A DNA stretch of 64,000 nt, from the NCBI GenBank assembly GCA_963763775.1, contig CAVXPZ010000003.1, forward strand, positions 768,001 to 832,000, given 5' to 3'. Position 1 is the first letter of the stretch, and each line of letters begins with the position of its first letter. Under the pieces are notes generated by a model that made no database searches, was not told the origin of the DNA, and saw only the letters and a list, made by a program, of their open reading frames with translations. The position numbers and the translations under genes were made by a program. This stretch comes from an uncultured Chloroflexia bacterium (GTDB lineage: Bacteria; Chloroflexota; Limnocylindria; Limnocylindrales; CSP1-4). This document shows, one piece after another, positions 11,056 to 38,400 of this stretch.

Positions 11056-13986
11056 TCAGTCGGTCGAGGTCGTCGGGTCGATCGGCGTCGGGGACTGGAG
11101 CGAGACCTCGGCCGCGAGCGCGGAGCCTTCGGCCGCGGTCGCGATGCGATCGCGCCCGCCGCGCTTCGCGACGAAGCAGGCACGGTCCGCGGCCAGGAGC
11201 ACGGACGTCGCGTCGAGCCCGTCGGCCGGATACGTCGCGATCCCGATCGAGGCACTGACTCCGTGGCCGGCCGTCTTCACGGATTGCGACGCCCGCTCGG
11301 CGACGAGCATGGCACCGGTCGCCTCGGTTCCCGGGAGGAGGAACGTGAACTCGTCGCCGCCGTATCGGAAGATCAGGTCGCTGTCGCGGCCGGCGCGGAC
11401 GAGCGCCGTCGAGATGTCGCGCAGCAGTCGGTCCCCGGCCTGGTGGCCGAGGCTGTTGTTGACGTTTCGGAAGTCGTCCAGGTCGAGCATGATCAGGCTG
11501 AACGGCAGGCCGGCGTGGACGGCCCGGCCGAGGCGGTCCTCGAACGTGCCGTGGTTCAGCAGACCGGTCAGGTCGTCGGTCTGCGCGCGGAGTTCGAGGC
11601 CGCGGAACGCCTCCGCGTTCTGGAGCGCGATGGAGACCTGCGCGGCGAACAGCTGGATGAGCTCGAATTCGTCGTCGGCGAAGGTGTTGCCCACACCGAG
11701 TCGCTCGACCGTCAGGACGCCGATCGCGCCATCACGGCCGCGGAGCGGGACGACGACCAGGCTGCCGTCCTGCGACTCCTCCTCGCCGAAGTGGTTGACC
11801 CGCGAGTCGTGCCGCTCGTCGGCGATGTACGTCGGCTCGTTGTGCTCGACGACCCAGGTCGCGATCCCGGTCTCGCCCGGCTCCCACGGCAACAGGTAGC
11901 TCTTGGCATGGACGCCCCGGGCGGTCAGCGGCGTGAGGAGGGCCGTCGTCGGGTCGATGACCTCGATCGCGATGTTGTCGCAGGCGACGAGGCCGCCGAG
12001 CCGCTCGGTGATGGTCTCGAGGACATCGCGGCCGTCGAACGTGGTCAGGATCGACTCGGTGATCTGGAGGAGTTCGCGCTGGCCGCGCACCTGCCGTTCG
12101 AGCGCCGCGCTCTGCTCGCGCAGCCGCTCGGTGGTGTCGGCGTTCGCCATCGCCTGCGCGGCGAAGCTCGCATAGATCACGAGGAGTCGCAGGTCGTCGT
12201 CCGTGAACTGCTCTAGTCCGAGCTTCGAGAGGACGAGCACGCCCATCACCCGATCGTCGAAGGTCATCGGGGCGAGCAGCATCGACTCGTCGAGGTCGTC
12301 CTCGGTCCCCGGGATCGTGTTGGCCCGCGGGTCCTTGGCGGCGTCGCCGAGGTTCTGGGCCACGCCGTGCTCGGCCACCCACCCGGTGATGCCCTCGCCG
12401 AGCTTGACCCGCAGCTGGTCCGGGGTCTCGTCGACGTACTCGCCGACCTGGCCCTTCATCGCGACCGGGATGAGGTCCGTCCCGGTCAGGCGGTAGACGC
12501 GGACGTTGTGGTAGTCGATGAGCTGTCGGAGCTCGGTGGCGATGGCCAGGCCGATCTCGTGGACGTCCGACAGGCGATTGAGTCGCGTCCCGAGCTGCTG
12601 GATGGACTGCAGCTGCGCCGCCCACGACGCCATCTGCTGGTAGTCCTGGGCTGCCCGGATCGCGACGCTCGCCTGGGTCGCGAGGGCCTCCATCGTGTCG
12701 AGGTCCCCCTCCGACCACGCGTGCGGCCGGTCGTGGTACACGTTGAGCAGGCCGAGGAGGTGGTCGCCCTCCAGCAGCGGCGCGGCGCAGATCGTGTCGA
12801 ACCCCTCCTGGATGATCGCGGCCCGCAGCTCCGCGCCGCGCGGGTCATTGCGGTACCCCACGGCGAACAGCGGCTGTCGGGCCGCCACGGCGGCGGCGGG
12901 GAGCGACCCGGGGCGGAGTTCGCGGATGTGAGCGAGATAGGTGCCCGAGAGGCCCCGGCTCACCTCGGCCACGGTGGTGCCGTCGGGACGCCGCAGATAG
13001 ACCGCGCCACGGTCGCCCTCGAACAGGACCATCGCGTGCTGGACCAGCCCGGACAGGATCCGGTCGAGGTCGAGGCGGCTCCCGATGTCCGTCGAGACAC
13101 GCCGGAGCGCGTCCGAGCGGTGGAGCTGGCGAGCCGTCTCCTCGCCGCGCTTCGCGAGCGACGTCACGGTCCCGATGCCGTCGGCCACCACCGAGACCAC
13201 TTCGAGGTCGTACGCGGAGAACCGCGCGCGCCGATCCGCGGCAAGGTGCAGGACGCCCCACGGCTCGTCGAGACCGGGGATGACCGCCGCGATCTCGATG
13301 CGACCGCCGGGCAGGAGTGGCAGCGGGCCGGGCCCCGGTTCGTGGCCGGTCGTCGCCCGACCGCGACCACGACCCACGACGGCGTCCGCGAGGGCGGCGC
13401 CCAGGACGCCGAACGCGCGCGGCCGATCGATGAGGTGGTCGTGCGACACGCCCTCGGCCCACGCCGTGACCCGGGGCACGAGGCGATCGCCGCGCAGCTC
13501 CCAGATGGCCGCGAGATCGTGCCCGCCCGCGTCACGGATCGCCTCGGCGGCACGGGTGAGGTCGGTCTCGAGGTCGCCGCTATCGACGGCGAGGCGGGTG
13601 ATCACGTCGATCAGGGCAAGGTCGGCGATCTGCCGATCGTCGGCCAGCGGGTCCGGCTCGCGCGGGATCGGCGGGGCGGCCTGGGCGCGGCGATCCGTGG
13701 GGCTCGCGAGCGGGATCCGGGCGAGCGGTCCGCCCCGTCGGCCGCCGGGGCCGGCGCGAGGCGGCCATGGGGCCGTCGACTCGGATCCGGCCTCGGCCGC
13801 GGCGAGGAACCGCTGGAGGTCGGTCAGCCGGTAGCGTCGGTCGCCACGCGGATTGATCCGGTAGTAGCGAAGCCGGCCGGCGTCACTCCACGCCCGGACC
13901 GTGTTCGGGTGCACCCCCAGCAGGCGGGCGGCCTTGGTGACGGTCAGCGTCGCGTCCGTAGGTCGGGATGGAAGGGCCGTGCTCAC
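11056..13986 (-). CDS. Diguanylate cyclase: N-terminal MerR/BldC-like HTH + multiple GAF domains + GGDEF
   Basis: TVTKAARLLGVHPNTVRAW..GDRRYR; about four GAF repeats; DDLTGL, RDSD I-site, RYGGDEF. Confidence 0.92.
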   Translation of the reverse strand: MSTALPSRPTDATLTVTKAARLLGVHPNTVRAWSDAGRLRYYRINPRGDRRYRLTDLQRFLAAAEAGSESTAPWPPRAGPGGRRGGPLARIPLASPTDRRAQAAPPIPREPDPLADDRQIADLALIDVITRLAVDSGDLETDLTRAAEAIRDAGGHDLAAIWELRGDRLVPRVTAWAEGVSHDHLIDRPRAFGVLGAALADAVVGRGRGRATTGHEPGPGPLPLLPGGRIEIAAVIPGLDEPWGVLHLAADRRARFSAYDLEVVSVVADGIGTVTSLAKRGEETARQLHRSDALRRVSTDIGSRLDLDRILSGLVQHAMVLFEGDRGAVYLRRPDGTTVAEVSRGLSGTYLAHIRELRPGSLPAAAVAARQPLFAVGYRNDPRGAELRAAIIQEGFDTICAAPLLEGDHLLGLLNVYHDRPHAWSEGDLDTMEALATQASVAIRAAQDYQQMASWAAQLQSIQQLGTRLNRLSDVHEIGLAIATELRQLIDYHNVRVYRLTGTDLIPVAMKGQVGEYVDETPDQLRVKLGEGITGWVAEHGVAQNLGDAAKDPRANTIPGTEDDLDESMLLAPMTFDDRVMGVLVLSKLGLEQFTDDDLRLLVIYASFAAQAMANADTTERLREQSAALERQVRGQRELLQITESILTTFDGRDVLETITERLGGLVACDNIAIEVIDPTTALLTPLTARGVHAKSYLLPWEPGETGIATWVVEHNEPTYIADERHDSRVNHFGEEESQDGSLVVVPLRGRDGAIGVLTVERLGVGNTFADDEFELIQLFAAQVSIALQNAEAFRGLELRAQTDDLTGLLNHGTFEDRLGRAVHAGLPFSLIMLDLDDFRNVNNSLGHQAGDRLLRDISTALVRAGRDSDLIFRYGGDEFTFLLPGTEATGAMLVAERASQSVKTAGHGVSASIGIATYPADGLDATSVLLAADRACFVAKRGGRDRIATAAEGSALAAEVSLQSPTPIDPTTSTD

Positions 13987-14073
13987 GAGACTCTGTAGCA
14001 AGAAATGTGAAGTCGACGCGGCGAGCCTACCAAGCTCACAGTTCTTGCCAATAGTCCGAAGGTCCCGGGACGG

Positions 14074-18719: not shown

Positions 18720-20595
18720 TCAGGCGCCGTCGAGCAGCAGCGGCCGCACGCGGCCCCACTCGTTCCACAGGTCGGCGAGGCCGTCCGCCCGGCGTCCGAG
18801 GAGGGCCACCAGCTCGCTCAGGCTGAGGTCGCCGGCGGTCTGGGCGAGATGCTCGTCCGCCGCGACCGACACGTCGCGGTACAGCTCGGCCATCTCGGTC
18901 TCGGTGGGCCACGAGCGCATCCGCATCGGGTCGAGCCCGGCATACCCGAGCGCCAGCGACAGGTCGCGTTGGGATGGGACCCGCTCGTCGGCGAACCCGC
19001 CGAGCCCATCGAAGCGGTGGCCGAGCGAGGCCAGCGCCTGCGAGATCTCGCGATCCTGGACCAGGGTGAACGTGCCCCAGAACGGGTGCTCGGTCGGGAA
19101 CACGAGAGCACCGGCCTCGATGCTGACCGCGACGACCGCGTCGACGAGGTTGCTCAACGTCAGCTGCCAGCGCCGCCGCGCGACGGGATCCTCGCCCGCG
19201 AGGCGATCGACGAGGGCGATGAGCGCCGTCCGGTCGCCGCGGACCAGGCGGAAGATCGTGGGCGTCCCGCCGCCGCTGAGCGCTGCGGCCAGCGGCTGAT
19301 CGTCCTCGTTCGAGGGACCCGGGCGCTCCACCCATGGCGCCGCCGGGATCGGCTCGACGACGCCCGCGGCGGACCGCTCGTCGCACTCGGCGAGTGACTG
19401 GCGTGCGGCGAGGCAGGCCGCCTCCGCCTGCTCGGCCGCGATCCGGACCGCATCCGCCTCGAGCGCCATGCGCTCGAGCGAGGCCCCCAGGTTGGTGGCG
19501 GCCATTCGCTCGCGCTTGGCCGTGGCCGCGGCGGCGCGCGCCGTGCTGTTGACGTCGTTGATCTCGACCAGCCAGTCCCGGGCGGCCGCCTCGGCGTCCT
19601 CGGCCGACTTCGCGCCGTTGTAGGCGGTCCGGAACCGCGCCTGCGCGGCCTCCTTCTCGCGGCGGACGGCGCGCGCATCCGCGATCGCGGCGGCGGCGTC
19701 GGCCTTGGACATGTGGTCGTCGTAGGTGCGCTGGGCGAGTCGCACGGCATCGGCCGCCTCGGTCGCGCCGGCGCGCGCCCGGACCGCGAGGCCGCACCGT
19801 TCCGCGGCGATCCGCCGTTCCCCGGCGCACGGGTCGCTCGTGTCGAGGACCGCGTCGATCCCGGCGCCGTCACCGCTCCCGGCGGCACCAGCGCCGGCCG
19901 CGCCCGCGGAGCCACCCGACCCGCTCGCCGTGCCGTCGGCCGGGCGCCTGCGGCCCGTCCGCGCCGCCCGGCGCCGCGTTCTCGGCGACGGGTCGTTCGA
20001 GGACGGCGATCGCCGTCCCGATCCGGAGCGGTTCGGCTTCCAGTGCGGGCGAGCCCTCGGGATCCGCCCCGTCGACGGACCCGGTGCCGCTCGAACGCAT
20101 CACGGACGTCACGGCGCTCACCCCCAGTGCGGCCAGGACGGGATCGTCGCCGCCGTCCACGGGGATGCCGACGAGCGAGCCGACGGGCCCGGTGGTGCCG
20201 CCCGGATCGGCGAGCGGGTAGGTCGGCCCGATCACGCGCTGCATCGATGGCCCGCCCTGGGCGGTCGATCCCACGGCCATGGAGGCGGTCGCGAACACCG
20301 GAACGCCGGGGCCGGACCGAACGCTCGTTCGACGTTCGACGGTTCGGTCGGCCATGGGGACCTCGGTAAGGCGACGGTCCGCGGGACCGCCGCGAGCGGG
20401 TTCGGCACCGGCGGTCATGAACGCGTCGTCCGACAGCGTCGACGGGCGGCGTCGTGGGATGGCATCCGTCTCCACGATCACGCGAACCGGTCGCGGAACG
20501 GGGGGTCGGGCTCGCAACACCTCGACGAGGGCGGCGCCACTGGCGATCCCGAGCACGAGGCCCAGGGCCAGGAAGGTGAATTCGCTGGCGGTCAC
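18720..20595 (-). CDS. Large hypothetical protein: N-terminal TM, low-complexity linker, coiled coil, globular C-terminus (frameshifted)
   Basis: ORFs 19870..20595 and 18720..19745 are collinear and protein-like. Confidence 0.55.
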
Positions 20596-20727
20596 GCTGC
20601 CCGCATCTCTCGGCTCGACTCCCTCCGAGTCACGGCGGTTGCCCGAGGCAGCGTAGCTGCGAGATCGGGCACCGTCAACTCGCGCGGAACGTCCCGGACC
20701 TCACTCTCGGGCCGCGGTCGGGGCTCT

Positions 20728-20757
20728 TTGCAGGGGCGGAGACGCGGATGGTAGATT
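20728..20757 (+). promoter_or_regulatory. sigma70-type promoter of the bc-complex operon
   Basis: TTGCAG-N18-TAGATT with extended TG. Confidence 0.5.
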
Positions 20758-20827
20758 CGCCTCGACGGCCGCCTGCCGCTCTTCAGCCTGCGCTCGACCC
20801 CCTCCGAAGGGAAAGGCACGACCCCGC

Positions 20828-22663
20828 TTGGCCATCGACTCGCCACAGGAATTCCTCGTCCAGCCCGTCGACGCCTCCTGGCTCCAGTGCAACATCGAGT
20901 GCCAGGAAGCGTGCCCGGTCGGGACCAACTGCCGCGGCTACCTCAATCTCGCGGCGGAAGGCCGCTTCGAGGAGGGGTACATCCTGTCGCGCGACCCGAA
21001 CCCGGTCGCGGCCATGTGCTCGTACGTCTGCTCTGCCCCGTGCGAACGCGCCTGCCGGCGCGGCGACATCGACCGCCCGCTCGCGATCCGGGCGATGAAG
21101 CGGTTCCTCGTCGAGTGGCACGAGGCGTCCGGGATCCCCGACGTCATGCCCCAGATCACGGCGCGCGAGGAGCGCGTCGCGGTGGTGGGCGCCGGACCGT
21201 CCGGTATCGCCGTCGCCCGCGAGCTCGCGACGAAGGGCTACCAGGTCACCGTCTTCGACAGCCTCCCCTACGGCGGCGGCACGATGCTCATCGGCGTCCC
21301 GGCGTTCCGCCTCCCGCGCGAGGCCATCGAGATGGACGTGCGGCTGGTCGAGCGGCTCGGCGTCAAGTTCGTGTTCGACACGACGATCGGCAAGGACATC
21401 CCCTTCGACCAGCTCCAGCGCGACTTCGACGCGATCGCGATCACCGCGGGCGCGATGGACGCGGTGGCGCTCGACATCCCGGGCTCCGAGCTCGAGGGTG
21501 TCGACTACGGCGTCGACTTCATGAAGAAGGCGAACCTCGGCCAGCCGCTCGAGGTCGGGACCGACGTGGTCGTCATCGGCGGCGGCTACACCGCGATGGA
21601 CTGCTCGCGCACGAGCCTGCGCCATGGCGCCGAGCGCGTGTCGATCGTCTACCGCCGCACGCGCTCCGAGCTCGTCGTCGACGAGGAGGAGCTGGGCGAG
21701 ACCGAGCGCGAAGGCGTGCGCATGGAGTTCCTCGCCAGCCCGATCGAGATCGTCGGCGAGGACGGCAAGGTCGCCGGCGTCAGGTTCATCCGGAACCGCC
21801 TCGGCGAGCCGGACGCGTCCGGCCGGCGCTCGCCGATCCCGATCGAAGGCTCAGAGTTCATCATCCCGGCCCAGACGGTGATCCCGGCTGTCTCCCAGGC
21901 GGCGGATCTGACCTTCCTCCCGATCGAAGCGAAGTTCGAGATCAACCGCGGCCGGGTCAAGGTGGACCCCGCGACCTACGCCTCCAACGTCAAGGGCGTC
22001 TTCGCCTGCGGCGACTTCGTGACCGGCCCGACGACGCTCATCGAGGCGGCGGGCCACGGCAAGAAGTGCGCGTACGCGATCGACCGCTATCTCTCCGGCC
22101 GCACGGACGTGACGGTCGCGGCGAACGTCAAGATCACCAGCTCGTGGCGCCACGACATGCCGGAGTTCTACGACGTCCTGCCTCGCCAGCACATCCCGAT
22201 GGTGCCGCTCTCGGCGCGGATGCCCTCGACCGAGCCGGTCGTCAACTTCAACACCCCGGTCGAGCTGGGCTACGACGCCACCGGTGCGGTCGCCGAGTCG
22301 ACCCGCTGCCTGATGTGCAACTACAACATCTGGTTCGACCCGTTCCGCTGCGTCCTCTGCGGCGCGTGTGCGGATGTCTGCCCCGAGGGCGTCATCCACA
22401 TGGTCGACATCAACGCGCTCAAGTCCGAGGGGCTCCTCCCCGAGCTCGAAGAGGCCTACGGCTGGGACCAGGGCGGCGCCATGATCCTTGACGAGGAGCG
22501 CTGCATCCGCTGCGCACTCTGCGTCAAGCGGTGCCCGTTCGACGCCATTACGATGGAGCGGTTCGAGCTGCAGGAGATCTCGACCGACGGCCGGCTCTAT
22601 AAGGAGTCGTACCGAGACGCGCAACTCGCCGGGACGCCCGGCGTGGCAGGAGGAGCCCGGTGA
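20828..22663 (+). CDS. GltD/NfnB/DsrL-like FAD/NAD(P)H oxidoreductase with C-terminal 2x[4Fe-4S] ferredoxin
   Basis: CQEACP..CSYVCSAPCERAC; GAGPSG; GGGYTAMD..YRRT; RCLMC; two CxxCxxCxxxCP. Confidence 0.92.
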   Translation: MAIDSPQEFLVQPVDASWLQCNIECQEACPVGTNCRGYLNLAAEGRFEEGYILSRDPNPVAAMCSYVCSAPCERACRRGDIDRPLAIRAMKRFLVEWHEASGIPDVMPQITAREERVAVVGAGPSGIAVARELATKGYQVTVFDSLPYGGGTMLIGVPAFRLPREAIEMDVRLVERLGVKFVFDTTIGKDIPFDQLQRDFDAIAITAGAMDAVALDIPGSELEGVDYGVDFMKKANLGQPLEVGTDVVVIGGGYTAMDCSRTSLRHGAERVSIVYRRTRSELVVDEEELGETEREGVRMEFLASPIEIVGEDGKVAGVRFIRNRLGEPDASGRRSPIPIEGSEFIIPAQTVIPAVSQAADLTFLPIEAKFEINRGRVKVDPATYASNVKGVFACGDFVTGPTTLIEAAGHGKKCAYAIDRYLSGRTDVTVAANVKITSSWRHDMPEFYDVLPRQHIPMVPLSARMPSTEPVVNFNTPVELGYDATGAVAESTRCLMCNYNIWFDPFRCVLCGACADVCPEGVIHMVDINALKSEGLLPELEEAYGWDQGGAMILDEERCIRCALCVKRCPFDAITMERFELQEISTDGRLYKESYRDAQLAGTPGVAGGAR

Positions 22664-23388
22664 GTTTCCTCGAGCGGGTGGACCAGACCATCCGCCGGAG
22701 CCCGGTGTGGCGGTCGATCTTCCGCCAGCCGTACCCCCGCGACGAGCGCTCGCGCGCCTACGCGGTGATGAACAACGTCTTCCTGCACATCCACCCGGTG
22801 CGCGTCCGCCAGCACGCGGTCAAGTTCGCCTACACGTTCTGCCTGGGCGGGCTCAGCTTCTTCCTGTTCCTGGTCCTGACCGTGACCGGCGTGTACCTGA
22901 TGTTCTTCTACGTGCCGAGCGCCACGCAGGCCTACACGAACATCCTCGAGATCCAGAGCCAGGTCGTGTTCGGGCTGCTCACCCGCAACGTCCACCGGTG
23001 GGCCGCCCACCTGATGGTCTTCTTCGTGTTCCTGCACATGATGCGGGTCTTCTACCACGGCGCCTACAAGCCGCCGCGCGAGTTCAACTGGGTCGTCGGC
23101 GTGGTCCTGCTGTTCCTCACGATCATGCTGTCGTTCACCGGCTACCTGCTCCCGTGGGACCAGATCGCCTACTGGGCCATCACCATCGGCACGAACATGG
23201 GCGGCTACGCGCCGCTGTTCAACACGCCGACCAAGCTGATGCTCCTCGGCGGCCTCGAGGTCGGCCAGAACACGCTGCTGCGCTTCTACGTGCTCCACAT
23301 CATGGTGTTCCCGCTCGTGGCCGCCATCTTCCTGGCGGTCCACTTCTGGCGCATCCGCAAGGACGGAGGCATCAGCGGCCCGCTATGA
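22660..23388 (+). CDS. petB: Cytochrome b6-type N-terminal subunit of Rieske/cytb complex
   Basis: FCLGG, RNVHRWAAH, FLHMMRV, FTGYLLPWDQ, RFYVLH..AVHF..IRKDGGISGPL. Confidence 0.92.
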   Translation: MSFLERVDQTIRRSPVWRSIFRQPYPRDERSRAYAVMNNVFLHIHPVRVRQHAVKFAYTFCLGGLSFFLFLVLTVTGVYLMFFYVPSATQAYTNILEIQSQVVFGLLTRNVHRWAAHLMVFFVFLHMMRVFYHGAYKPPREFNWVVGVVLLFLTIMLSFTGYLLPWDQIAYWAITIGTNMGGYAPLFNTPTKLMLLGGLEVGQNTLLRFYVLHIMVFPLVAAIFLAVHFWRIRKDGGISGPL

Positions 23389-23510
23389 CCGCCATCTGCT
23401 TCGTTGTCGCCTGCGCGCCTCGCTCACGCACCTCGAAGTGCGCTCGCTCCGGTGCTCAGCTCCGCCTTGCGTCTGACGGTCCTATCGGCCCACTCGGATT
23501 CGCAGCATGA
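23385..23510 (+). other. ATGA-bounded 41-codon micro-ORF / MIRU-like insert between petB and petD
   Basis: ATG overlaps the petB stop and TGA overlaps the petD start; non-GC3 codon usage; internal palindromic pieces. Confidence 0.55.
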
Positions 23511-24109
23511 GCGACGTGAAGGCGCCGCCCGAGAAGCGCGAAGTGCTGCCGGTCGATCCGACCCGTCGGACCGAGATCGACAAGCAGCGCGTCCCGATGT
23601 CGGCGCGGCCGTACCGGTTGCTCGCGCTCGTCAAGCAGGATGCCGTCGTCCGCGTCCAGAAGGAACCGGACGACACGGTCATGACCTGGCCGCACCTGCT
23701 CACGATCGAGTTCCTCGCGGCCGGCATGATGAGCATCTTCCTGCTGCTGATGGGCCTGATCATCAACGCCCCGCTCGAGGAACTGGCGAACGGCAACGTG
23801 ACGCCGGCGGTGGCCAAGGCCCCGTGGTACTTCCTCGGATTGCAGGAGCTGCTCGCCTACTTCCACCCGACGGTGTCCGGCGTCCTCGTGCCGACGTTCG
23901 TGCTGGTGGGCGCCGCCCTCATCCCGTTCATCGACCGCGCCAACATCCACACGATCCGACCGTCGGAGCGCAAGACCGCGGTCGCGCTCTTCACGCTGTT
24001 CTGCATCCTCGGCCTGACGCTGACGTTCGTCGGCATCTTCTTCCGAGGCCCCGGCTACACCTTCATCATCCCGTACGTCACGGCCCCCGGCGTCTACTTC
24101 GCCCTATGA
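23507..24109 (+). CDS. petD: Rieske/cytb complex subunit IV
   Basis: TWPHLL, APLEELAN..TP..AKAPWYFLGLQELL, IPFIDR..RPSERK. Confidence 0.88.
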   Translation: MSDVKAPPEKREVLPVDPTRRTEIDKQRVPMSARPYRLLALVKQDAVVRVQKEPDDTVMTWPHLLTIEFLAAGMMSIFLLLMGLIINAPLEELANGNVTPAVAKAPWYFLGLQELLAYFHPTVSGVLVPTFVLVGAALIPFIDRANIHTIRPSERKTAVALFTLFCILGLTLTFVGIFFRGPGYTFIIPYVTAPGVYFAL

Positions 24110-24134
24110 CCGCAACCCGAAGGATCCCCTCGCG

Positions 24135-24809
24135 ATGAGCAACTACCACGTCGAACCGGCCGCCAAGCCCGCCGCCCTCACGAAGGAGGCGATCAAGAGC
24201 CTGCGCAAGGAGCAGGTCCAGGGCATCTCGCGGCGGCAGCTCATGCGCACCGCCATCGGTGCCGGGATCGGGCTGTGGCTCCTCGAGGTGACCGCCGGAA
24301 CGCTCGCGTTCATCTGGCCGAACCTCTCGGGCGGCTTCGGCGCCCCGATCGAGATCGGCACGCTCGAGATCGTCAAGGCCCAGAACTCCCAGCTGCCCAT
24401 CGGCGACGGCTTCCCGGCGTACTACTCCGAGGCCCGGGCGTTCGTGATCCTCTACAACCCCGGCCAGCAGGAGTTCCTGCCCGGTGAGGACACGACGGGC
24501 AACGGCCAGGCGCTCAACGTCCGCGCGCTCTACCAGCGCTGCCCGCACCTCGGCTGCAAGCCGAACCCGTGCCAGAAGAACTTCTGGTTCGAGTGTCCGT
24601 GCCACGGCTCGCGCTACGACCGGCTCGGCCAGAAGGCCGACGGACCGCAGTACGGACCGGCGCCGCGGAGCATGGACCGCTTTTCGATCACCGTGAGCAG
24701 CGGGGGCGTGCTCACCATCAACACCGGCAAGATCACGCTCGGCCCGCTGCCGATCGCGCTCGGCCAGCCGGGGCTCATCCCGCCCCTCTCGCCCACGGGC
24801 TGCATCTGA
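24135..24809 (+). CDS. Rieske iron-sulfur subunit
   Basis: Tat-like SRRQLM + TM; CPHLGC and CPCHGSRY; GPAPRSM. Confidence 0.93.
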   Translation: MSNYHVEPAAKPAALTKEAIKSLRKEQVQGISRRQLMRTAIGAGIGLWLLEVTAGTLAFIWPNLSGGFGAPIEIGTLEIVKAQNSQLPIGDGFPAYYSEARAFVILYNPGQQEFLPGEDTTGNGQALNVRALYQRCPHLGCKPNPCQKNFWFECPCHGSRYDRLGQKADGPQYGPAPRSMDRFSITVSSGGVLTINTGKITLGPLPIALGQPGLIPPLSPTGCI

Positions 24810-24854
24810 CGCCGTGACCGACCTGGACCGACGAATGACCCGCCGAGGAGATCG

Positions 24855-25949
24855 ATGAGCGACACGCCCGGACGCGAGCCCGAGGAGCGTCTGCCCGCGA
24901 CCCGGCCGTCCGGTGACGTGGCGCCCGTCGAGGCCGCGCCGGTCGAGCGGTTCAGCTCGTCCGCGTCCACGCGAAGCGTGGAGCTCTCGCCGGAACGAGC
25001 CGCGCAGGTCGTCCGACAGTCGTCGAACGCCCGCTGGGTCGGGTTCCTGGCCGTCGTCGTCGTGATGCTGTTCGTGGCGATCTACTGGTTCTACGAGGTC
25101 GGCACGCCGCTCGGCATGTCCGAGTCGCGGCTGGACCAGGACGCCACGAACCAGGCCGTGGTCAACGTCGAGCGCGGCTACAACGTGTTCGAGGCGAACT
25201 GCGCGCGTTGCCACGGCGCCAATGGCGAGGGTGGCATCGGACCGAAGCTCAACGATCAGGAAAAGCTGTACCAGCACCTCAACGCGAACTACCTGAACAC
25301 CGTGCTGACGGCCGGTGGCCGATACGTCTGCGGCGACGCCAAGTCGCTCATGCCGGTCTGGTCGAACACGGCCACGCCGCCCGGGCCGCTGAACTACCGT
25401 CAGATCCAGGAGGTCATCGCGTTCATCCGCGCGACGGACGAGGTGACCTACACGATCCGCGACCCCGAACTCGGGACACCCGAGGTGGACCCGGTGACCG
25501 GCAAGGTCAAGACGTTCCAGGGCTGGGTCGACCCGAACTACCAGCCGGCGCCCGATGCCACGCCGTTCCCGGCCTGCTGGAAGGACCAGTTCACGACGCC
25601 GTCCGCCGCGCCGTCGGCCTCGGCCGGGGCGTCAGGTGGTCCGATCGCGTCGCCGACGACCGCCCCCACCGGCACGACGATCCCGCTCACCGCGCAGGGC
25701 ATCGCGTTCACCTCGACCGAGCTCACGGCCCCGGCGAACCAGGCCTTCTCCATCGAGTTCGACAACCAGGACGTCGGCGTCCCGCACAACGTCGCCATCC
25801 AGGACTCGACCGGGCAGTTCGTCTTCAAGGGCGAGACCTTCCCGGGGATCGCCAAGCAGGACTACGCCGTCTCGCCGCTCACGGCCGGGACGTACACCTT
25901 CGTGTGCACGGTGCACGCGAACATGAAGGGCACGCTGACGGTTCAATGA
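24855..25949 (+). CDS. Membrane-anchored cytochrome c fused to a C-terminal cupredoxin
   Basis: TM helix, CARCH, ..LMPVW; PT/A linker; HNVAI..YTFVCTVHANMKG type-1 Cu ligands. Confidence 0.9.
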   Translation: MSDTPGREPEERLPATRPSGDVAPVEAAPVERFSSSASTRSVELSPERAAQVVRQSSNARWVGFLAVVVVMLFVAIYWFYEVGTPLGMSESRLDQDATNQAVVNVERGYNVFEANCARCHGANGEGGIGPKLNDQEKLYQHLNANYLNTVLTAGGRYVCGDAKSLMPVWSNTATPPGPLNYRQIQEVIAFIRATDEVTYTIRDPELGTPEVDPVTGKVKTFQGWVDPNYQPAPDATPFPACWKDQFTTPSAAPSASAGASGGPIASPTTAPTGTTIPLTAQGIAFTSTELTAPANQAFSIEFDNQDVGVPHNVAIQDSTGQFVFKGETFPGIAKQDYAVSPLTAGTYTFVCTVHANMKGTLTVQ

Positions 25950-25994: not shown

Positions 25995-27440
25995 ATGGCG
26001 CAGCAGGCGCTCACACCCGGGATGACGGTTCCGCGGAAACGGGCCATGTTCGGCCTGCTCGACGCGGACGGTTGGGGTTGGGCGTCGGTCAAGGCCTTCG
26101 TCTGGATGGTGTTCATCATCATCATCCTCGGCTACATCCCTGACCGCGCGTACTACTTCACGGTCGGGCGCACGGTCGACCTCGGGGTCCTGGTCTGGTC
26201 GCCGATCAACCTCTGCCCGCCGACCAACGGCTCACTCCCGTGCCCGGCGCCCCTCGGCGCCGTCGTGCCGTGGGAGACCTCGCCGCCGCAGCTGGCGCTC
26301 CCGGCCGCGCGGACCGATGGCTCGATCGTCCAGGTCGGGACCAAGCTGCTGTACATCGGCGGCAGCGATGGGACCGCGGCCAAGCCCGACGTGTACGTCG
26401 CGGAGACGACCGGGACCGGGAACTTCGACAAGTGGGTCCCCGGGCCGTCGCTGCCCGTGGCCCGCTCCGACGCCTCTGCGATCTACGTCGCCGGCAAGAT
26501 CTACCTGCTGGGCGGCAAGGACGAGACGGGCGCCCCGACGGACACGGTCTTCGTCCTCACGCCGAACGCCAGCGGCGACCTCGGGGAGTGGGCCCCGGCC
26601 GACAAGCTGAAGTTGCCCGAAGCGCGCTACGGCACGGCCGCGACCGCCACCGCGGACGGTCTGCTGCTGATCGGCGGTTCGAACGCCGCCGGGCCGGTGG
26701 CGACCACCTGGAAGTCCCTCCTCGACAAGCAGGGCGCGCTCGGGGATTGGGACACCCAGGCGCCGCTCGTCCACCCGCAGTCCGACGGGGCGGCGGCGGT
26801 CGCCGGTAACTACATCTGGTACTTCGGCGGGCACGATGCGACGGGGCCGGTGGGCGCCGTCCAGCGCGGCACGCTCGGGCTGGCGGCCGCCGAAGGTTTC
26901 CCCGAGAACCCCGACGAGGGCAAGCTCGTCCAGTGGGCGATCAGCGACGCCTCCAACCTGCCGGCCGCCCGCGACGATCCGGTCGCCTGGTCGAACCAGG
27001 GGATCCTGTATGTCGCCGGCGGCTCGGACGCGAACGGCCTCCAGAAGGAGCTCTACTGGGCCCCTCCGACCGCCGACGGCGCGATCTCCGAGTGGAAGCA
27101 CCTCGACGTCAGCGACCTGCCGTATCCGCTGGCCGGCGGCGCCGCGCTCGTGAACGGCCCGGCCGCCACGATCGTCGGCGGGACGACGCCGGACGGCGTC
27201 ATCGCCTCGAGCCTACGGGGGAACGCCGCGCCGCAGGCGCCGTTCTTCCGGCTCGGCCTGCTCGGCGCGACCGTCCCGGGTCTCACGATCCAGGGCGAGA
27301 TCGGCCAGCAGCTCGGCTACCTGAACGCGGCCGGCGCGGGCACCGTCGACTTCATCATCCTGATCCTGATCGGCGTGGCGTTCGCCCACAAGGAGCAGAC
27401 CAAGGCCCTCTTCGCGAGATTGTTCCGCCGCAAGCGGTAG
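25995..27440 (+). CDS. Membrane-anchored Kelch-repeat beta-propeller protein
   Basis: Repeats LYIGG, YLLGG, LLIGG, WYFGG, YVAGG, IVGG with LPxAR/W spacing; TM at both ends. Confidence 0.82.
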   Translation: MAQQALTPGMTVPRKRAMFGLLDADGWGWASVKAFVWMVFIIIILGYIPDRAYYFTVGRTVDLGVLVWSPINLCPPTNGSLPCPAPLGAVVPWETSPPQLALPAARTDGSIVQVGTKLLYIGGSDGTAAKPDVYVAETTGTGNFDKWVPGPSLPVARSDASAIYVAGKIYLLGGKDETGAPTDTVFVLTPNASGDLGEWAPADKLKLPEARYGTAATATADGLLLIGGSNAAGPVATTWKSLLDKQGALGDWDTQAPLVHPQSDGAAAVAGNYIWYFGGHDATGPVGAVQRGTLGLAAAEGFPENPDEGKLVQWAISDASNLPAARDDPVAWSNQGILYVAGGSDANGLQKELYWAPPTADGAISEWKHLDVSDLPYPLAGGAALVNGPAATIVGGTTPDGVIASSLRGNAAPQAPFFRLGLLGATVPGLTIQGEIGQQLGYLNAAGAGTVDFIILILIGVAFAHKEQTKALFARLFRRKR

Positions 27441-33839: not shown

Positions 33840-34082
33840 CCGTCGCGCGGGCGCACCGGCGACCACGTCGTCGGTGTCGGTCACGCTCGATCGACACCCG
33901 CGTGCAACCGTGGGAGCCGTTCCCCCGCGACTCGCTACCGAAGCGACACCTTGTCGGTCCTGCGACGGGGCCGCTCACGACCCCGTGCAATTCGTAGCCT
34001 CCTGATCACGCCTCGATCTGGCGTCGAGGCCCGCTCGATAGGGAGCGCGTCCGGGGCCGGACGCGTCGCGGAGGACGAATCG

Positions 34083-35303
34083 ATGGATACGGGCAATACC
34101 GCCTGGATGCTGATGTCCACGGCGCTCGTCATGATCATGTTGCCGGGGCTGGCGCTGTTCTATGGCGGCCTGGTCCGTCGCAAGAACGTCCTTTCGACGA
34201 TCATGCACAGCTTCTTCGGCCTGGCGATCGTGAGCATCGTCTGGGTGGTCATCGGGTTCAGCCTGGCGTTCGGCTCGGACGTCGGCGGTCTCGGCCTCAT
34301 CGGCGGCCCCGAGTTCGCGTTCTTCAACGGCGTCGGCCAGGATCCGAGCCCGATCTATGGCACGACGATCCCGTTCCTGCTCTTCGCGGCGTTCCAGCTG
34401 ATGTTCGCGGCGATCACGCCGGCGCTCATCACCGGCGCCTTCGCCGAGCGCAAGCGCTTCAGCGCCTTCGTCCTCTTCACGATCCTCTGGTCCGTCCTCA
34501 TCTACTCCCCGATCGCGCACTGGGTCTGGTCCGTCGACGGCTGGCTCTTCAAGCTGGGTGCCCTTGACTTCGCGGGCGGCACCGTCGTCCACATCAGCTC
34601 TGGCGTCTCGGCGCTGATCGTCGCGATCCTCATCGGTCGCCGCGTCGTCAACGGCGAGAGCATGGAGCCGCACGACGTGCCGATGACCGTCCTCGGCGCC
34701 GGTCTGCTCTGGTTCGGCTGGTTCGGCTTCAACGCCGGGTCCGCGCTGACCGCGGGCGGCCTGGCGGCGAGCGCCTTCGTCGTCACGAACATCGCCGCCG
34801 CCGCGGCCACGATCACGTGGGTCGGCGCGAGCTACCTCCACAAGGGCAAGGTCAGCGTCGTCGGGGCCGCCTGCGGTGCCGTCGCCGGCCTGGTCGCGAT
34901 CACCCCGGCGTCGGGCTTCGTCACCGTCGGTGGCGCGCTCATCATCGGCCTCGTGGCCGGCGGCCTCTGCTACAGCGCCACGCTCCTCAAGGCCCGCATC
35001 AAGGTCGACGACGCGCTGGACGTCTTCGCGGTCCACGGCGTCGGCGGCATGTTCGGCGCCATCGCGACCGGCATCTTCGCCAGCTCCACGGTCCAGGCGG
35101 CCTACAGCGGCCTGATCGACGGCAACCCGGCGCAGGTCGGGATCCAGCTCGTCGCGGTCGCGGCGACGATCGGTTACGCGGTGGTCGGCACGTTCGTGAT
35201 CGTCAAGGTCGTCGACTTCATCCTCGGGATGCGCGTCACCTCCACCCAGGAAGAGGCCGGCCTCGACATCGCGGTCCACGGGGAGGCGGCCTACCAGCCC
35301 TAA
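34083..35303 (+). CDS. amtB: Ammonium transporter
   Basis: DTGNTAW, PGLALFYGG, DFAGGTVVH, LWFGWFGFNAGS, DDALDVFAVHG, HGEAAY. Confidence 0.96.
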   Translation: MDTGNTAWMLMSTALVMIMLPGLALFYGGLVRRKNVLSTIMHSFFGLAIVSIVWVVIGFSLAFGSDVGGLGLIGGPEFAFFNGVGQDPSPIYGTTIPFLLFAAFQLMFAAITPALITGAFAERKRFSAFVLFTILWSVLIYSPIAHWVWSVDGWLFKLGALDFAGGTVVHISSGVSALIVAILIGRRVVNGESMEPHDVPMTVLGAGLLWFGWFGFNAGSALTAGGLAASAFVVTNIAAAAATITWVGASYLHKGKVSVVGAACGAVAGLVAITPASGFVTVGGALIIGLVAGGLCYSATLLKARIKVDDALDVFAVHGVGGMFGAIATGIFASSTVQAAYSGLIDGNPAQVGIQLVAVAATIGYAVVGTFVIVKVVDFILGMRVTSTQEEAGLDIAVHGEAAYQP

Positions 35304-35448
35304 CCCGGGCGGGCGTCGCCGGCCGCGGATCGCGAGGTCCGCCGGTCCGACCGACGCCCACTCGATCCCTCGCGACTTCCACGACCGGCCGCCGCCGACC
35401 AACCTCCTCGCGGCGACCGGTCGTTCACCCCTCTCCGGAGACCAGGCC

Positions 35449-38400
35449 ATGGCGACAGCCCCTCTCTACGAGTCGCGGTTCGAGCACGACGCGTGTGGCG
35501 TCGGGTTCGTGGCGGACGCCGGCGGGCGGTCCAGGGACCGCGTGCTGCCGCTGGCGCTCTCGGGGCTGGCCGCGCTCGGTCATCGCGGCGCGTTCGGCGC
35601 TGACGGCGAGTCGAGCGACGGGGCCGGGGTCGCCCTGCCCCTGGATCGGTCCGTGCTGGCGCTGCTAGGCGGACCTGACGCCGCCGCTCGCAAGCCCGGC
35701 ATCGTGTTCGCCTTCCTGCCGCGCGGGCGGGGCACAGCACGCCGAGGGCGCGCGCTTGTGGAGGCGGCGCTCGCGGAGACCGGCCTGACGTCCGTTCGCT
35801 GGCGCGACGTCCCGTTCGATGCCGCCGCGCTCGGCGCGGCTGCGGCGGAGTCCATGCCCGTGTTCGCGCAGGCGATCGTCGAGCGACCCGTCGCGCCGGA
35901 TGGACGGCCCGCCACGGACGACGCCTTCGAGCGGCAGCTGATCGTCGCGCGCCGCCGCCTCGAGACCGCGGTCCGTGCGGCCGGCCCGGCGATGGCCGAC
36001 CTGTCCGTCCCGTCCGCCTCGTGTCGGACGATCGTCTACAAGGGCCTCGTCACCGGGGCGCGGCTGCCGCAGCTGTTCCCCGACCTGCGGACGCCGCTCA
36101 CGGTCGGATACGCGGTCTTCCACCAGCGATATGCGACGAATACCCACCCGGTCTGGCGGCTTGCCCAGCCGTTCCGCTCGATCGCCCACAACGGCGAGAT
36201 CAACACGGTCCGCGGCAACCGCGAGCAGGTCCGTGGACGGACCCGCGACCAGGGCGCCAAGGCGGTCGCCGACGACCTGCTGGCCGCCGGCCCGCTGCTG
36301 TCCCCAGACGGGTCCGACTCGCTCTCGCTCGATGAGGCCCTCGAGCTGCTGACGACCACGGGCTGGGACCTCACGCCGGCCCTGCTGGCGTCGATCCCCG
36401 AGGCCCTCGCCCTCCGGCGAGCCCCGCACCCGCACGTCGCGACCCTGCGCCGGCGCACGGCCGGGTTCCTGGCGCCGTGGGACGGCCCGGCGGCGATCGT
36501 GTTCGCGGACGGCGTCCGCGTCGGTGCGCTCGTCGACCGCAACGGCCTGCGGCCGGCGTCCTTCGCCATCACGCGAGACCGTTTGGTCGTCGCGGCCTCC
36601 GAGGCGGGGGCCATCCCGCTCGACCCGTCCGAGACCGTCCGCCGTGGCCGCCTTGGCCCGGGCGAGCTGTTGCTGGTCGAGCCCGGCCGGCGGGCCATCT
36701 ACGAGGACACCGACGCGAAGGCCCATGCCCTGCGCTCGCTCCCGATCCACGACGCCCCGCGGCCGATGTTCGAGGACCGCGTGGAGACGGCCGCCGCCGC
36801 CCTCGAGCACGAGACCGTGCCGCTCACGCCACCGCTCCGGCACCTCGCCGGGTTGGACGCGGAGCGGGCGCGCCTCGACATCAAGACGATGGCGCTGGAG
36901 GCGCACGAGCCGCTGTGGAGCATGGGTGACGACACGCCGACGCCCGGCCGCGGTCGGCTCGACCGACCCGTCGCCGATCACCTCCGCCAGGCGTTCGCGC
37001 AAGTCACGAACCCCGCGATCGACCCCGAGCGGGAGCGCATCGTGATGGACCTCCGCGTGGAGCTCGGCCGACGCCCGGCCCTTCTCGGCGGTCCGCCGCG
37101 CGGTCCGAAGAGCCTGCGGCTGGCCCGGCCCGTGGTCGCGGACCTCGATGGCCTCATCGATGTGGCACGAGACGGTGGTCGCCGGGTGAAGCGACTGGCG
37201 GCGACGTGGCCGGCGAGCGATGGCCCGAGCGGGCTGGAGGCGGCGCTGGATCGCCTCGCCGCCGCGGCCGTGGCCGCCTCGGAGGCCGGGGCCGAGATCC
37301 TGCTGCTCAGCGACGACGACTTCTCGTTCGGGCGGCTGCCGATCCCGTCCATCCTGGCGGCCGGGGCTGTCCACGCGGCCCTCACCGATGCCGGCCTGCG
37401 CGGCCGGACGGACCTCGTGGTCGACGCGGCCGACGTCCTCGATGTCCACGGGATGGCGATGCTCCTGGCCGTCGGTGCCACCGCGGTCCATCCGCGACTG
37501 GCCATCGAGCTTGCGGCCGAGCTGGCCGGCACGCGCGGGGCGGAGACCGTCACCCCGGCCGACGCGATCGGGAACCTCGTCACGGCCTTCGAGGCCGGGC
37601 TCCGCAAGACCCTCGCCCGGATGGGGATCAGCGCTGTCGCGTCCTACATCGGCGGCGCGCTCATCGACGTGATCGACCTCGACGCGAGCGTCGTCGCGCG
37701 CTGCTTCCCGATGGCGGCCGCGTGGCCAGGCCGGACCACCTTCGACGACCTGGCGGCGCGGCAGCTCCGGCGTGCCGAAGCGTCGGCCGCCATCACGCCG
37801 CCGGCACCCGGCCGCGAGCCACGGCTGCCCGACCCAGGCTGGGCGCGATTCCGCGCCGACGGGGAGGCGCACCTCTTCTCCCCGAAGATCGCCACCGAGA
37901 TCACGACGCTCGCCACCACCGACGACCCGGCCGGCATCGATGCCGCGCTCGAGCGCTACCGCGCGACGCTGGCCCGCGGCGCCACTGACCGGGCGGTGCC
38001 GCGCGACGAGCTGCGCGTGCGTCGCGTCGCGGCCCCGGTCGCGCTCGACGAGGTCGAGGACGCCCGCAGCATCGTGCGGCGGTTCGTCGTGTCCGCGATG
38101 AGCGTCGGGCGCGCTGTCGCCCGAGGCGCACCAGGCGCTGACCATCGGGATCCAGCGCGCCGGCGGTGCGGCGAACACCGGCGAGGGCGGGGAAGACCCG
38201 GCCTGGTACGTCAACGGGCCGGACGGACGCCGTCGGGACGCGCGCATCAAGCAGGTCGCCTCGGCGCGGTTCGGCGTGACCGCGCGCCTACCTCGCGCGA
38301 GCGGACCAGCTCGAGATCAAGATCGCCCAGGGCTCGAAGCCGGGCGAGGGCGGCCAGCTCCCGGGCCGCAAGGCCACGGCGTACATCGCCGCGCTTCGGC

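Follow-up and report, generated by a model that had tools for sequence, protein, structure and literature searches.

Rieske/cytochrome b complexes with an NAD(P)-dependent oxidoreductase subunit have been discussed for more than a decade, and only for slow-growing anammox bacteria. Their operons were reported by Kartal and colleagues (2011, 2013) and by Dibrova et al. (2013), as cited in the passages of PMC5600118 that deal with them, and Kuenenia expresses complexes containing cytochrome b and an oxidoreductase subunit (de Almeida et al. 2016, cited in the same passages). According to these parts of the paper (Dibrova et al. 2017, PMC5600118), the short cytochromes b of subfamily G occur together with large NAD(P)-binding, cysteine-rich oxidoreductases; in some planctomycetes the oxidoreductase genes lie inside the bc operon, and the tree indicates proximity 'in many other cases'. 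Here we describe a five-gene operon at positions 20828–25949 of a 64,000-nucleotide stretch of DNA (the window) from an uncultured bacterium of the class Limnocylindria (contig CAVXPZ010000003.1). Its first gene encodes an NADP(H)-type Fe–S flavoprotein and is followed by genes for a b6-type cytochrome b, subunit IV, a Rieske protein and a cytochrome c–cupredoxin fusion.

For the Kuenenia complexes, Hauser et al. (2025) determined the structures of the Kuste4569 (9rk4) and Kustd1480 (9rk3) Rieske domains, for which potentials of +303 and +335 mV were measured (PMC12954380). The passages of that paper on the whole complexes report that all subunits co-migrate, and the AlphaFold3 models place the reductase at the N side, above an additional haem b that was modelled there. 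The operons concerned, Kuste4569–4574 and Kustd1480–1485, likewise encode a b6-type cytochrome b that is split and carries the haem-cN motif, along with subunit IV, a Rieske protein and a large cytoplasmic FAD/NAD(P) protein with four Fe–S clusters. In the anammox protein a lysine takes the place of the missing fourth cysteine at the FAD-proximal cluster, and the corresponding residue here is K91. The Rieske domains of the anammox and Limnocylindria operons are each other's nearest solved relatives. Differences are found on the exit side, which consists of a monohaem cytochrome c with a cupredoxin here and of multihaem cytochromes or a hydroxylamine oxidoreductase-like partner in anammox bacteria; in subunit IV, which has 200 residues and three hydrophobic segments here but five helices there; and in the host, which unlike the anammox bacteria is an aerobe with a haem-copper oxidase. 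Judged by the Rieske match and the operon content, on which the likeness rests, the operon is kin to the anammox complexes. The preliminary description of this DNA had pointed to anammox operons with NAD(P)H oxidoreductase subunits, and such operons are indeed described in the passages of PMC5600118 and PMC12954380 devoted to them.

A second group of relatives is the 'APWY clade' of Kao and Hunte (2014), for which a non-standard operation was proposed and of which, they state, no member has been characterized (PMC4122944). Chloroflexi are among the APWY-clade phyla (PMC4122944) and Ktedonobacteria belong to subfamily G (PMC5600118); the passages concerned mention neither Limnocylindria nor a version with a ferredoxin alone. 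With this group, which includes the ExtP/ExtQ type of Geobacter, the operon shares the APWY Qo motif, a short CxGG cytochrome b and a cytb_ExtP score. As a kind, the design of the complex is already known, from the anammox bacteria and from the APWY clade or subfamily G. Within our limited literature library we found no publication that deals with respiration by this complex in Limnocylindria.

The b6f complex of cyanobacteria and chloroplasts binds ferredoxin–NADP reductase (FNR), and a route from ferredoxin to haem cN has been proposed for cyclic electron flow. The present complex resembles b6f in its b6-type core with haem cN and in the idea of an NADP(H)- or ferredoxin-linked partner on the N side. 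It differs in its partner, which comes from another family of proteins and has its gene in the operon, in the absence of photosynthesis, and in having APWY instead of PEWY.

Gene content and conservation of the operon

The window comes from a 3.3 Mb genome of a soil or freshwater member of the Limnocylindria (Chloroflexota), present in four contigs and 87% complete. Its G+C content of about 72% makes most long open reading frames (ORFs) frame artefacts, and genes were picked by a filter on G+C at third codon positions (GC3) combined with Pfam. This singled out six co-oriented genes on the plus strand, five of them within 20828–25949. The GC3 of the operon gene frames is 0.91–0.96 and the family matches are strong, making chance ORFs unlikely. 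The features are as follows.

20828–22663, plus strand: NADP(H)-type Fe–S flavoprotein, 611 residues, TTG start (Pfam, PDB and NCBIfam matches)
22142–22660, plus strand: C-terminal 2x[4Fe-4S] ferredoxin-like domain of the flavoprotein, residues 439–611 approximately (Fer4 matches)
22660–23388, plus strand: cytochrome b6-type subunit, 242 residues, GTG start (PF00033, 1.7e-44)
23507–24109, plus strand: subunit IV, 200 residues (frame re-read and alignment of 35 sequences)
24135–24809, plus strand: Rieske [2Fe-2S] subunit, 224 residues (PF00355, 3.4e-9)
24855–25949, plus strand: membrane-anchored fusion of a monohaem cytochrome c and a cupredoxin, 364 residues (Cytochrom_C, 8.6e-10; Cupredoxin_1, 2e-11)
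25995–27440, plus strand: Kelch beta-propeller protein, 481 residues, the sixth co-oriented gene (Pfam Kelch families)
20100–20827, no strand: upstream non-coding gap of 728 nucleotides, the presumed promoter region (GC3 frame analysis)
18720–20099, minus strand: divergent gene across the upstream gap (GC3 frame analysis)

A Rieske/cytochrome b operon led by the flavoprotein had been proposed for this interval in the preliminary description, and all of its features were recovered at the same coordinates. This includes the overlap between the first two genes, for which the junction sequence shows that the TGA of the flavoprotein and the GTG of cytochrome b share GTGA at 22660–22663, with AGGAGG a few bases upstream. 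On this basis the start of cytochrome b6 is predicted to be translationally coupled to the flavoprotein stop. For subunit IV the ORF at 23404–24138 was rejected as an Arg/Pro-rich wrong frame, the true frame being 23507–24109. The upstream gap contained no sigma-70-like site and no Rfam match, and scans for promoters, terminators and Rfam families gave nothing above the shuffled expectation.

The membrane core was characterized by motif and profile comparison, with invariance given throughout for 35 aligned sequences. Cytochrome b6, which matches spinach cytochrome b6 (6rqf_I) at 6.3e-52, carries the haem-cN motif CxGG as CLGG (C61-L-G63-G64, 35/35), and its histidine pairs His112/His126 and His213/His228 are invariant and have b6-type haem ligand spacing. 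The protein passes the NCBIfam model NF040969 (cytb_ExtP, the type of the Geobacter ext operon) with 294.3 bits at a cut-off of 290. Its N-terminal HxHP motif (His43/His45) is reminiscent of anammox Kuste4571, in whose model His43 ligates an extra haem b. Both CxGG and HxHP occur in 80/80 cytochromes b, including those of relatives without an N-side partner in the operon, and HxHP was rejected as a marker of an anammox-type partner because it is present irrespective of the partner.

In subunit IV the APWY Qo motif (K104-A105-P106-W107-Y108) is invariant, as are W61-P-H63 and E68 near the N side. Three hydrophobic segments were counted by eye, and the NCBIfam scores for ExtQ (53.7 bits) and b6f subunit IV (19.4 bits) are both below the cut-off. 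In four loci of the families f69 and f70 (L053, L054, L055 and L057) subunit IV is 260–286 residues long and has a hydrophobic insertion of some 60–85 residues after the second helix, recalling the five-helix subunit IV of the anammox models.

The Rieske protein has an N-terminal twin-arginine/transmembrane anchor (SRRQLM) and the cluster boxes CPHLGC and CPCHGSRY. Its best PDB matches are 9rk4_A (3.8e-10, Kuste4569) and 9rk3_A (1.2e-9, Kustd1480), the next match being at 4.7e-7, which bears out the kinship with the anammox NAD(P)-reductase complexes that had been suggested beforehand. The box CxCHGSxY is found in 81/84 Rieske sequences, operons without an N-side partner included, and its Ser/Tyr pair was rejected for that reason as a marker of anammox-like energetics. 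The translation of the fifth gene contains one haem c site (CARCH) and the type-1 copper motif C-T-V-H-A-N-M, and this protein is likely the electron exit on the outer side. The cupredoxin part was seen only in families f1 and f2 among the loci examined. Taken as a whole, the split b6, the separate subunit IV, the Rieske protein and CxGG identify the locus, as far as its sequence tells, as that of a b6-type Rieske/cytochrome b complex, and its motifs and NCBIfam score would place it in the APWY clade or subfamily G.

The Kelch gene at 25995–27440 lies beyond the range considered earlier. It follows the operon in those f1 and f2 loci that reach that far (L061–L063, L065–L067 and others) and is absent from the f3, f69 and f70 loci examined.

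The linkage between flavoprotein and cytochrome b was surveyed in two samples. Among 301 genomes of the phylum, 29 loci outside the own genome were examined; cytochrome b lies downstream of the flavoprotein gene in 25, all from the own class, and the other four, from other families, have the flavoprotein gene without a downstream cytochrome b. The class sample comprised 121 Limnocylindria genomes, the own one included, and gave a cytochrome b match in 112 and a flavoprotein orthologue (E<=1e-100) in 105. In 102 of these 105 cytochrome b is immediately downstream on the same strand, and the three exceptions are at contig ends, so that the linkage asserted in the preliminary description is conserved across the class. 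The 105 include four unpublished genomes (G335, G355, G364 and G380), without which the count is 99/101. The full order of flavoprotein, cytochrome b, subunit IV, Rieske protein and cytochrome c was found in 9/10 loci from the families f1, f2, f3, f69 and f70, the tenth stopping in cytochrome b at a contig end, and this order is kept class-wide despite divergence down to about 47% identity. The streamlined genomes of 1.0–1.4 Mb in family f2 have kept the flavoprotein gene in 5/5 cases.

Both the flavoprotein and cytochrome b are absent from two genera of the own family, g4 (seven genomes) and g5 (one genome), at 91–95% completeness. COX1 was also absent from the four of these eight genomes that were tested. 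The joint loss of flavoprotein, cytochrome b and COX1 suggests that the flavoprotein goes when the aerobic chain goes. The own genome does encode COX1, a haem-copper oxidase subunit, at C3:838950–840290, in agreement with the aerobic lifestyle that had been considered likely. It contains, at 87% completeness, no second functional cytochrome b and no NrfD-type marker of alternative complex III, and the operon encodes the only quinol:cytochrome c oxidoreductase found in the organism.

The flavoprotein and its ferredoxin-like domain

Pfam matches of the flavoprotein include Fer4_20 (residues 19–101, 7.9e-17), Pyr_redox_2 (116–411, 1.8e-26) and Fer4/Fer4_7 (501–580). From the N-terminus on, the protein consists of a two-cluster [4Fe-4S] domain, Rossmann folds for FAD and for NADPH, a linker and, at the C-terminus, a 2x[4Fe-4S] domain; its sequence has no hydrophobic segment. 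The eight N-terminal cysteines, K91, two CxxCxxCxxxCP motifs and the YRR motif (Y275 R276 R277) are invariant, YRR being common to E. coli GltD and the NfnB of the own genome. Pfam and motif reading thus agree with the earlier assignment of an N-terminal Fe–S domain, FAD, a YRR-type NADP site and a C-terminal pair of [4Fe-4S] clusters.

The best PDB matches are 9bov_A (3.9e-106), 9n5u_A ('NfnA', 3.8e-105) and 8oh5_C (StnC, 4.5e-91), followed by NfnB 4ylf_B (3.1e-86) and by GltD at about 1e-64. The flavoprotein has its GltD-like fold in common with StnC/NfnA of the Bfu-type transhydrogenases (8oh5, 9bov, 9n5u), with NfnB (4ylf, 5jca) and with GltD (2vdc, 6s6s). Unlike StnC/NfnA it is accompanied by neither a NuoG-like or FdhF-like part nor nearby genes for NfnA or StnAB partners, and unlike StnC, NfnB and GltD it possesses its own C-terminal 2x[4Fe-4S] domain. 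In a gap-free alignment K91 corresponds to StnC K170 and R161 to StnC R239, and the position of K91 is occupied by Glu in E. coli GltD and in the own-genome NfnB. In the passages of PMC10482914 on StnC, K170 is the lysine ligand of the FAD-proximal cluster, and the module oxidizes NADPH without bifurcating and delivers the electrons singly to an Fe–S chain.

No curated NCBIfam cut-off was reached. The best match, NF009410, scored 420 bits against a cut-off of 516, and the scores were 322.8 bits for TIGR01316 (NfnB, cut-off 471.75), 204.5 bits for TIGR01317 (GltD, 447.7) and 259.4 bits for TIGR01318 (GltD, 482.95). The own genome has an NfnB elsewhere (C1:87295–88575), which scores 563.7 bits with TIGR01316 and lies beside an NfnA-like gene. 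A quick maximum-likelihood tree of 32 sequences, with the Shimodaira–Hasegawa-like approximate likelihood ratio test (SH-aLRT) as its only support measure, united the cytochrome b-linked flavoproteins in one clade (98). The stand-alone Chloroflexota homologues form its sister clade (91), joined to it at 93, and E. coli GltD, the own NfnB and nuo-linked paralogues fall outside both. By these profile scores the flavoprotein is judged to be neither a true GltD nor an NfnB, and in the tree, where a grouping with true GltD would have spoken against the earlier interpretation, it groups with neither. The flanks that were inspected contained no dsr genes.

An AlphaFold2 model of the flavoprotein from a 35-row alignment had a mean predicted local distance difference test score (pLDDT) of 59.1, with both Fe–S domains below 50. 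Prediction of a complex of two cytochrome b, two subunit IV (residues 30–200) and flavoprotein residues 439–611 from alignments of 35 rows gave scores of 0.07 and 0.01 against a mark of 0.32, an outcome that counts neither for nor against binding. A NuoI-like identity of the C-terminal domain was rejected, since the matches were of the generic 2x[4Fe-4S] kind and TIGR01971 gave 39.6 bits against a cut-off of 113. In a representative library the C-terminal module had 1728 matches at E<=1e-3 and 351 matching clusters at E<=1e-10, many of about 600 residues; many entries are fragments and all lack names, and the matches therefore carry no information on taxonomic breadth.

Homologues of the same architecture (about 610 residues, 40–45% identical) are common in other Chloroflexota, where their neighbours are unrelated genes. 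A different arrangement emerged when cytochrome b was used as the query in a profile scan of one genome per species. The best 80 loci came only from Chloroflexota and Actinomycetota. The flavoprotein is upstream in all 24 Limnocylindria loci among them, with some copies cut by contig ends or frameshifts. In 47 of the 56 others an ORF of about 137 residues lies directly upstream of a cytochrome b6 that is 59–66% identical to the one described here. The remaining nine loci consist of two that start at a contig end, one lone cytochrome b and six from other Chloroflexota. The short ORF holds two CxxCxxCxxxCP motifs and matches only the flavoprotein residues from about 445 or 501 to 602, with a modest 33% identity over 86 residues (pairwise E 2e-13). 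In the reciprocal comparison all four ORFs tested matched the C-terminal domain of the flavoprotein best in the own genome, ahead of every other ferredoxin-like domain.

The ferredoxin-headed loci are mostly labelled Acidimicrobiia/Actinomycetota. Their operons have a cytochrome b6 of the same clade, followed by subunit IV and the Rieske protein, and a 2x[4Fe-4S] protein upstream which differs from the flavoprotein in being the ferredoxin-like part alone, without a flavin or NADPH domain. In these loci (L087–L141, for instance L087:6508–6924) the ORF has 'TDANPPMPEF' at its N-terminal and 'HGYGYGMRL' at its C-terminal end. Kao and Hunte list a split cytochrome b of Ilumatobacter among those with PEWY or APWY, the passage leaving open which of the two (PMC4122944). 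No paper on the ferredoxin-headed operon of Acidimicrobiia was found in the same limited library, and the position of a ferredoxin alone at the head of these operons is new here.

Since the short ORF is similar to the C-terminal domain and occupies the same position upstream of cytochrome b6, that domain appears to belong to the complex. We infer that it may be the docking unit of the b6 complex and that the flavoprotein may be this unit fused to a StnC-like NADPH module; the Acidimicrobiia variant would then be a natural dissection of docking and flavin module. More speculatively, a 2x[4Fe-4S] adaptor could be general to APWY-clade b6 complexes and in Limnocylindria, where it is fused, feed electrons from NADPH to haem cN and the N-site quinone, a generalization that we offer tentatively and consider rather doubtful. 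If true, the Q cycle as Mitchell first conceived it, with a donor dedicated to the N side, would exist in a living organism and, together with a module in the complex I operon, the respiratory chain would plug into the NADPH pool at two coupling sites.

Electron route and alternatives

The best overall explanation, to which we assign a probability of roughly 0.45, is that the operon encodes a quinol:cytochrome c/cupredoxin oxidoreductase with its own NADPH dehydrogenase and with input at the N site. From its genomic setting, it is quite probable that the flavoprotein belongs to the Rieske/cytochrome b complex as a subunit. Provided that it does, the direction of NADPH input would have slightly better than even odds, with the reverse, quinol-driven NADP+ reduction, taking the remainder; the preliminary description had allowed for either direction. 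The C-terminal 2x[4Fe-4S] domain would dock on cytochrome b6/subunit IV at their cytoplasmic (N) face, and FAD would be wired through four clusters to haem cN/bN. Electrons would thus travel from NADPH via FAD, the four [4Fe-4S] clusters and haem cN/bN to quinone at the N site. In this way the NADPH dehydrogenase of the complex could provide quinol, or else the second electron at the N site, for a Q cycle that is ordinary in other respects and would end in the cytochrome c–cupredoxin and then an aa3-type oxidase.

Several observations favor NADPH input. The core motifs are equal in relatives without a partner, and nothing marks a re-tuned low-potential chain. The invariant His63 and Glu68 of subunit IV suggest that the N site is functional, and a functional N site would short-circuit the reduction of NADP+; in the anammox models described in the relevant passages of PMC12954380, their counterparts may be the Glu that ligates haem cN and the His close to it. 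PntB and glucose-6-phosphate dehydrogenase (G6PD) were present in 5/5 genomes sampled across the class, so ordinary sources of NADPH exist. By analogy, a StnC-type module is a documented entry point that oxidizes NADPH, and the occurrence of a StnC-like module in the nuo operon of the own genome also counts for input. If NADPH input is correct, electrons can enter b6-type complexes from the cytoplasmic side, a result that would be relevant to the old question of cyclic flow from ferredoxin to haem cN in b6f.

A number of points weigh against this explanation. The association of the flavoprotein with the complex is derived wholly from gene order and co-occurrence. None of 16 loci of the same-architecture homologues in other Chloroflexota has cytochrome b, subunit IV or a Rieske gene within 6 kb, and two Ktedonobacteria, including the cultured Dictyobacter alpinus, have the homologue and an APWY-type b6 operon unlinked; the flavoprotein can evidently exist away from cytochrome b genes. 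The genome already encodes complex I. Quinone markers are poor in this 87% complete genome, with no match for MqnA, a MenA-like score of 82.7 (cut-off 102) and a MenD score of 38 (cut-off 244). The Rieske protein has the same Ser/Tyr hydrogen-bond pair as Kuste4569. For the anammox complexes, moreover, Hauser et al. argue for NAD(P)H production and, in the passage concerned, call electron flow from NAD(P)H to quinone an 'enormous energy loss' (PMC12954380).

The last two points lead to the anammox-type alternative, in which quinol is bifurcated at the Qo site, the low-potential electron passes via haems bP, bN and cN and the four clusters to FAD and NADP+, and the high-potential electron leaves through Rieske protein, cytochrome c and cupredoxin to the oxidase, making the complex a respiration-driven NADPH generator. 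NADP+ reduction is the mechanism favored in print for the closest known relatives, at least in the consulted parts of PMC12954380, and the Rieske protein finds its best structural matches in Kuste4569 and Kustd1480, with their potentials of +303 and +335 mV. Its box CPCHGSRY retains both hydrogen-bond donors, the cupredoxin exit domain suggests a high-potential acceptor, and the APWY Qo motif belongs to the clade with the proposed non-standard operation (PMC4122944, in the passage on the clade). However, the Rieske box, CxGG and HxHP are equal in relatives without an N-side partner and give no sign of a re-tuned low-potential chain, and the N-site His and Glu are conserved; a short circuit by quinone reduction at this site is the main unsolved problem according to the same anammox study (PMC12954380, in the passage on this point). 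PntB and G6PD were found in all five genomes sampled, and the path of the electron would run against the membrane potential. We consider this alternative possible but on balance unlikely. Were it true, Q-cycle bifurcation could make NADPH in aerobes.

Less likely still, the flavoprotein could be co-transcribed with the complex without being a subunit, acting as a soluble NADPH:ferredoxin-type oxidoreductase that is merely expressed in step with aerobic respiration, or as a transient donor, as proposed for FNR/ferredoxin with b6f. The lack of a hydrophobic segment would suit such a role, as would the stand-alone homologues of the same architecture, with their 16 unlinked loci and the unlinked genes of Ktedonobacteria, and the 351 library clusters that match the C-terminal module, many of them about 600 residues long. 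It is difficult to reconcile with the stop/start overlap and a class-wide gene order that survives down to about 47% identity, with the retention of the gene in all five streamlined f2 genomes, and with its absence from the eight genomes without cytochrome b. The ferredoxin-like domain that alone holds the same position in Acidimicrobiia also argues for a subunit.

A role as redox sensor, regulator or assembly factor, for instance gating the N site by the NADPH/NADP+ ratio, would fit the conserved linkage as well as the ferredoxin-only variant in Acidimicrobiia; we regard it as improbable, since a sensor would need less than a chain of NADPH site, FAD and four clusters whose ligands are all invariant. 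Finally, although the GltB of the window has no adjacent GltD and the flavoprotein displays the GltD fold and YRR motif, it is hardly credible that the flavoprotein is the true GltD small subunit of the GltB at 35449–40025, because it does not reach TIGR01317 or TIGR01318, E. coli GltD lies outside the cytochrome b-linked and stand-alone clades of the quick tree, position 91 is Lys as in StnC and not the Glu of GltD and NfnB, an extra C-terminal 2x[4Fe-4S] domain is present, the linkage in 102/105 genomes is to cytochrome b and not to GltB, and a GltB homologue without the flavoprotein occurred in 3/3 g4 genomes tested, a weak point at an identity of only 35–36%.

Whichever way the electrons flow, the one complex-III-type enzyme that was found has this design, and it belongs to a class of aerobic bacteria common in soil and freshwater. 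With an exit side simpler than in anammox bacteria, of one haem c and one copper domain, the five-gene unit is realistic to express and assay, and the value of the operon is that of a simple, aerobic test case.

Expression and neighboring loci

Contigs from soil metatranscriptomes, 88–95% alike and derived from relatives, cover the genes for the flavoprotein, cytochrome b and subunit IV, and the operon stretch 25300–25650 had no RNA contig cover. Two contigs from two studies (X2 record 13 and X5 record 27) bridge the junction between flavoprotein and cytochrome b with at least 31 nucleotides on each side; a further metatranscriptome, X4, is apparently the same data as X2. The bridging contigs are only compatible with co-transcription, as contigs cannot prove a single transcript and carry-over of DNA is possible.

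In the window the region 33951–40025 contains an AmtB gene followed by GltB, which is read as two ORFs of 1024 and 501 residues meeting at 38520–38523, probably due to an assembly frameshift. No GltD-type gene adjoins GltB (35449–40025), AmtB being upstream and the flavoprotein gene 13 kb away. A single-subunit, ferredoxin-type glutamate synthase would explain a GltB without a partner. Genes that look frameshifted are this GltB (38520), a cytochrome b copy on C1 and a NuoF-like gene, and the frameshifts may well be assembly indels.

The cytochrome b copy (L050, C1:126723–127449 of the own genome, G000) is an orphan cytochrome b6, 96% identical to the operon gene product over residues 1–189 and 90% over the rest. 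Its frame changes after residue 189, and there is no subunit IV or Rieske gene nearby. Intact orphan copies with 88–90% identity are present in G327 (locus L051), G357 and G330 (L052), and the one in G330 adjoins genes for VKOR, PCuAC and SCO1.

Outside the window, the nuo operon at C3:446000–465900 of the own genome (L143) has a non-canonical stretch between NuoH and NuoJ. Encoded there are a NuoE-like [2Fe-2S] domain, a NuoF-like protein (PF01512) whose gene is broken into two frames, and a 1062-residue protein composed of Fer2_4, a GltD-like part and a 2x[4Fe-4S]/NuoI-like part. A 1.7 Mb genome from elsewhere in the Chloroflexota encodes a 1004-residue fusion of NuoH, a GltD-like flavoprotein and 2x[4Fe-4S] (L045:5842–8856, G244:C69), which is part of a complex I operon and is preceded by NuoC and NuoD and followed by a NuoL-like gene.

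Just past the end of the window, at C3:836697–840663, the single COX1 is flanked by cupredoxin-domain paralogues that are 45–60% identical to the C-terminal part of the operon's cytochrome c–cupredoxin. Within the window, the minus strand at 11056–14001 encodes a 981-residue protein in whose C-terminal part lies a GGDEF diguanylate cyclase domain and in whose N-terminal part a DNA-binding domain of the excisionase type.

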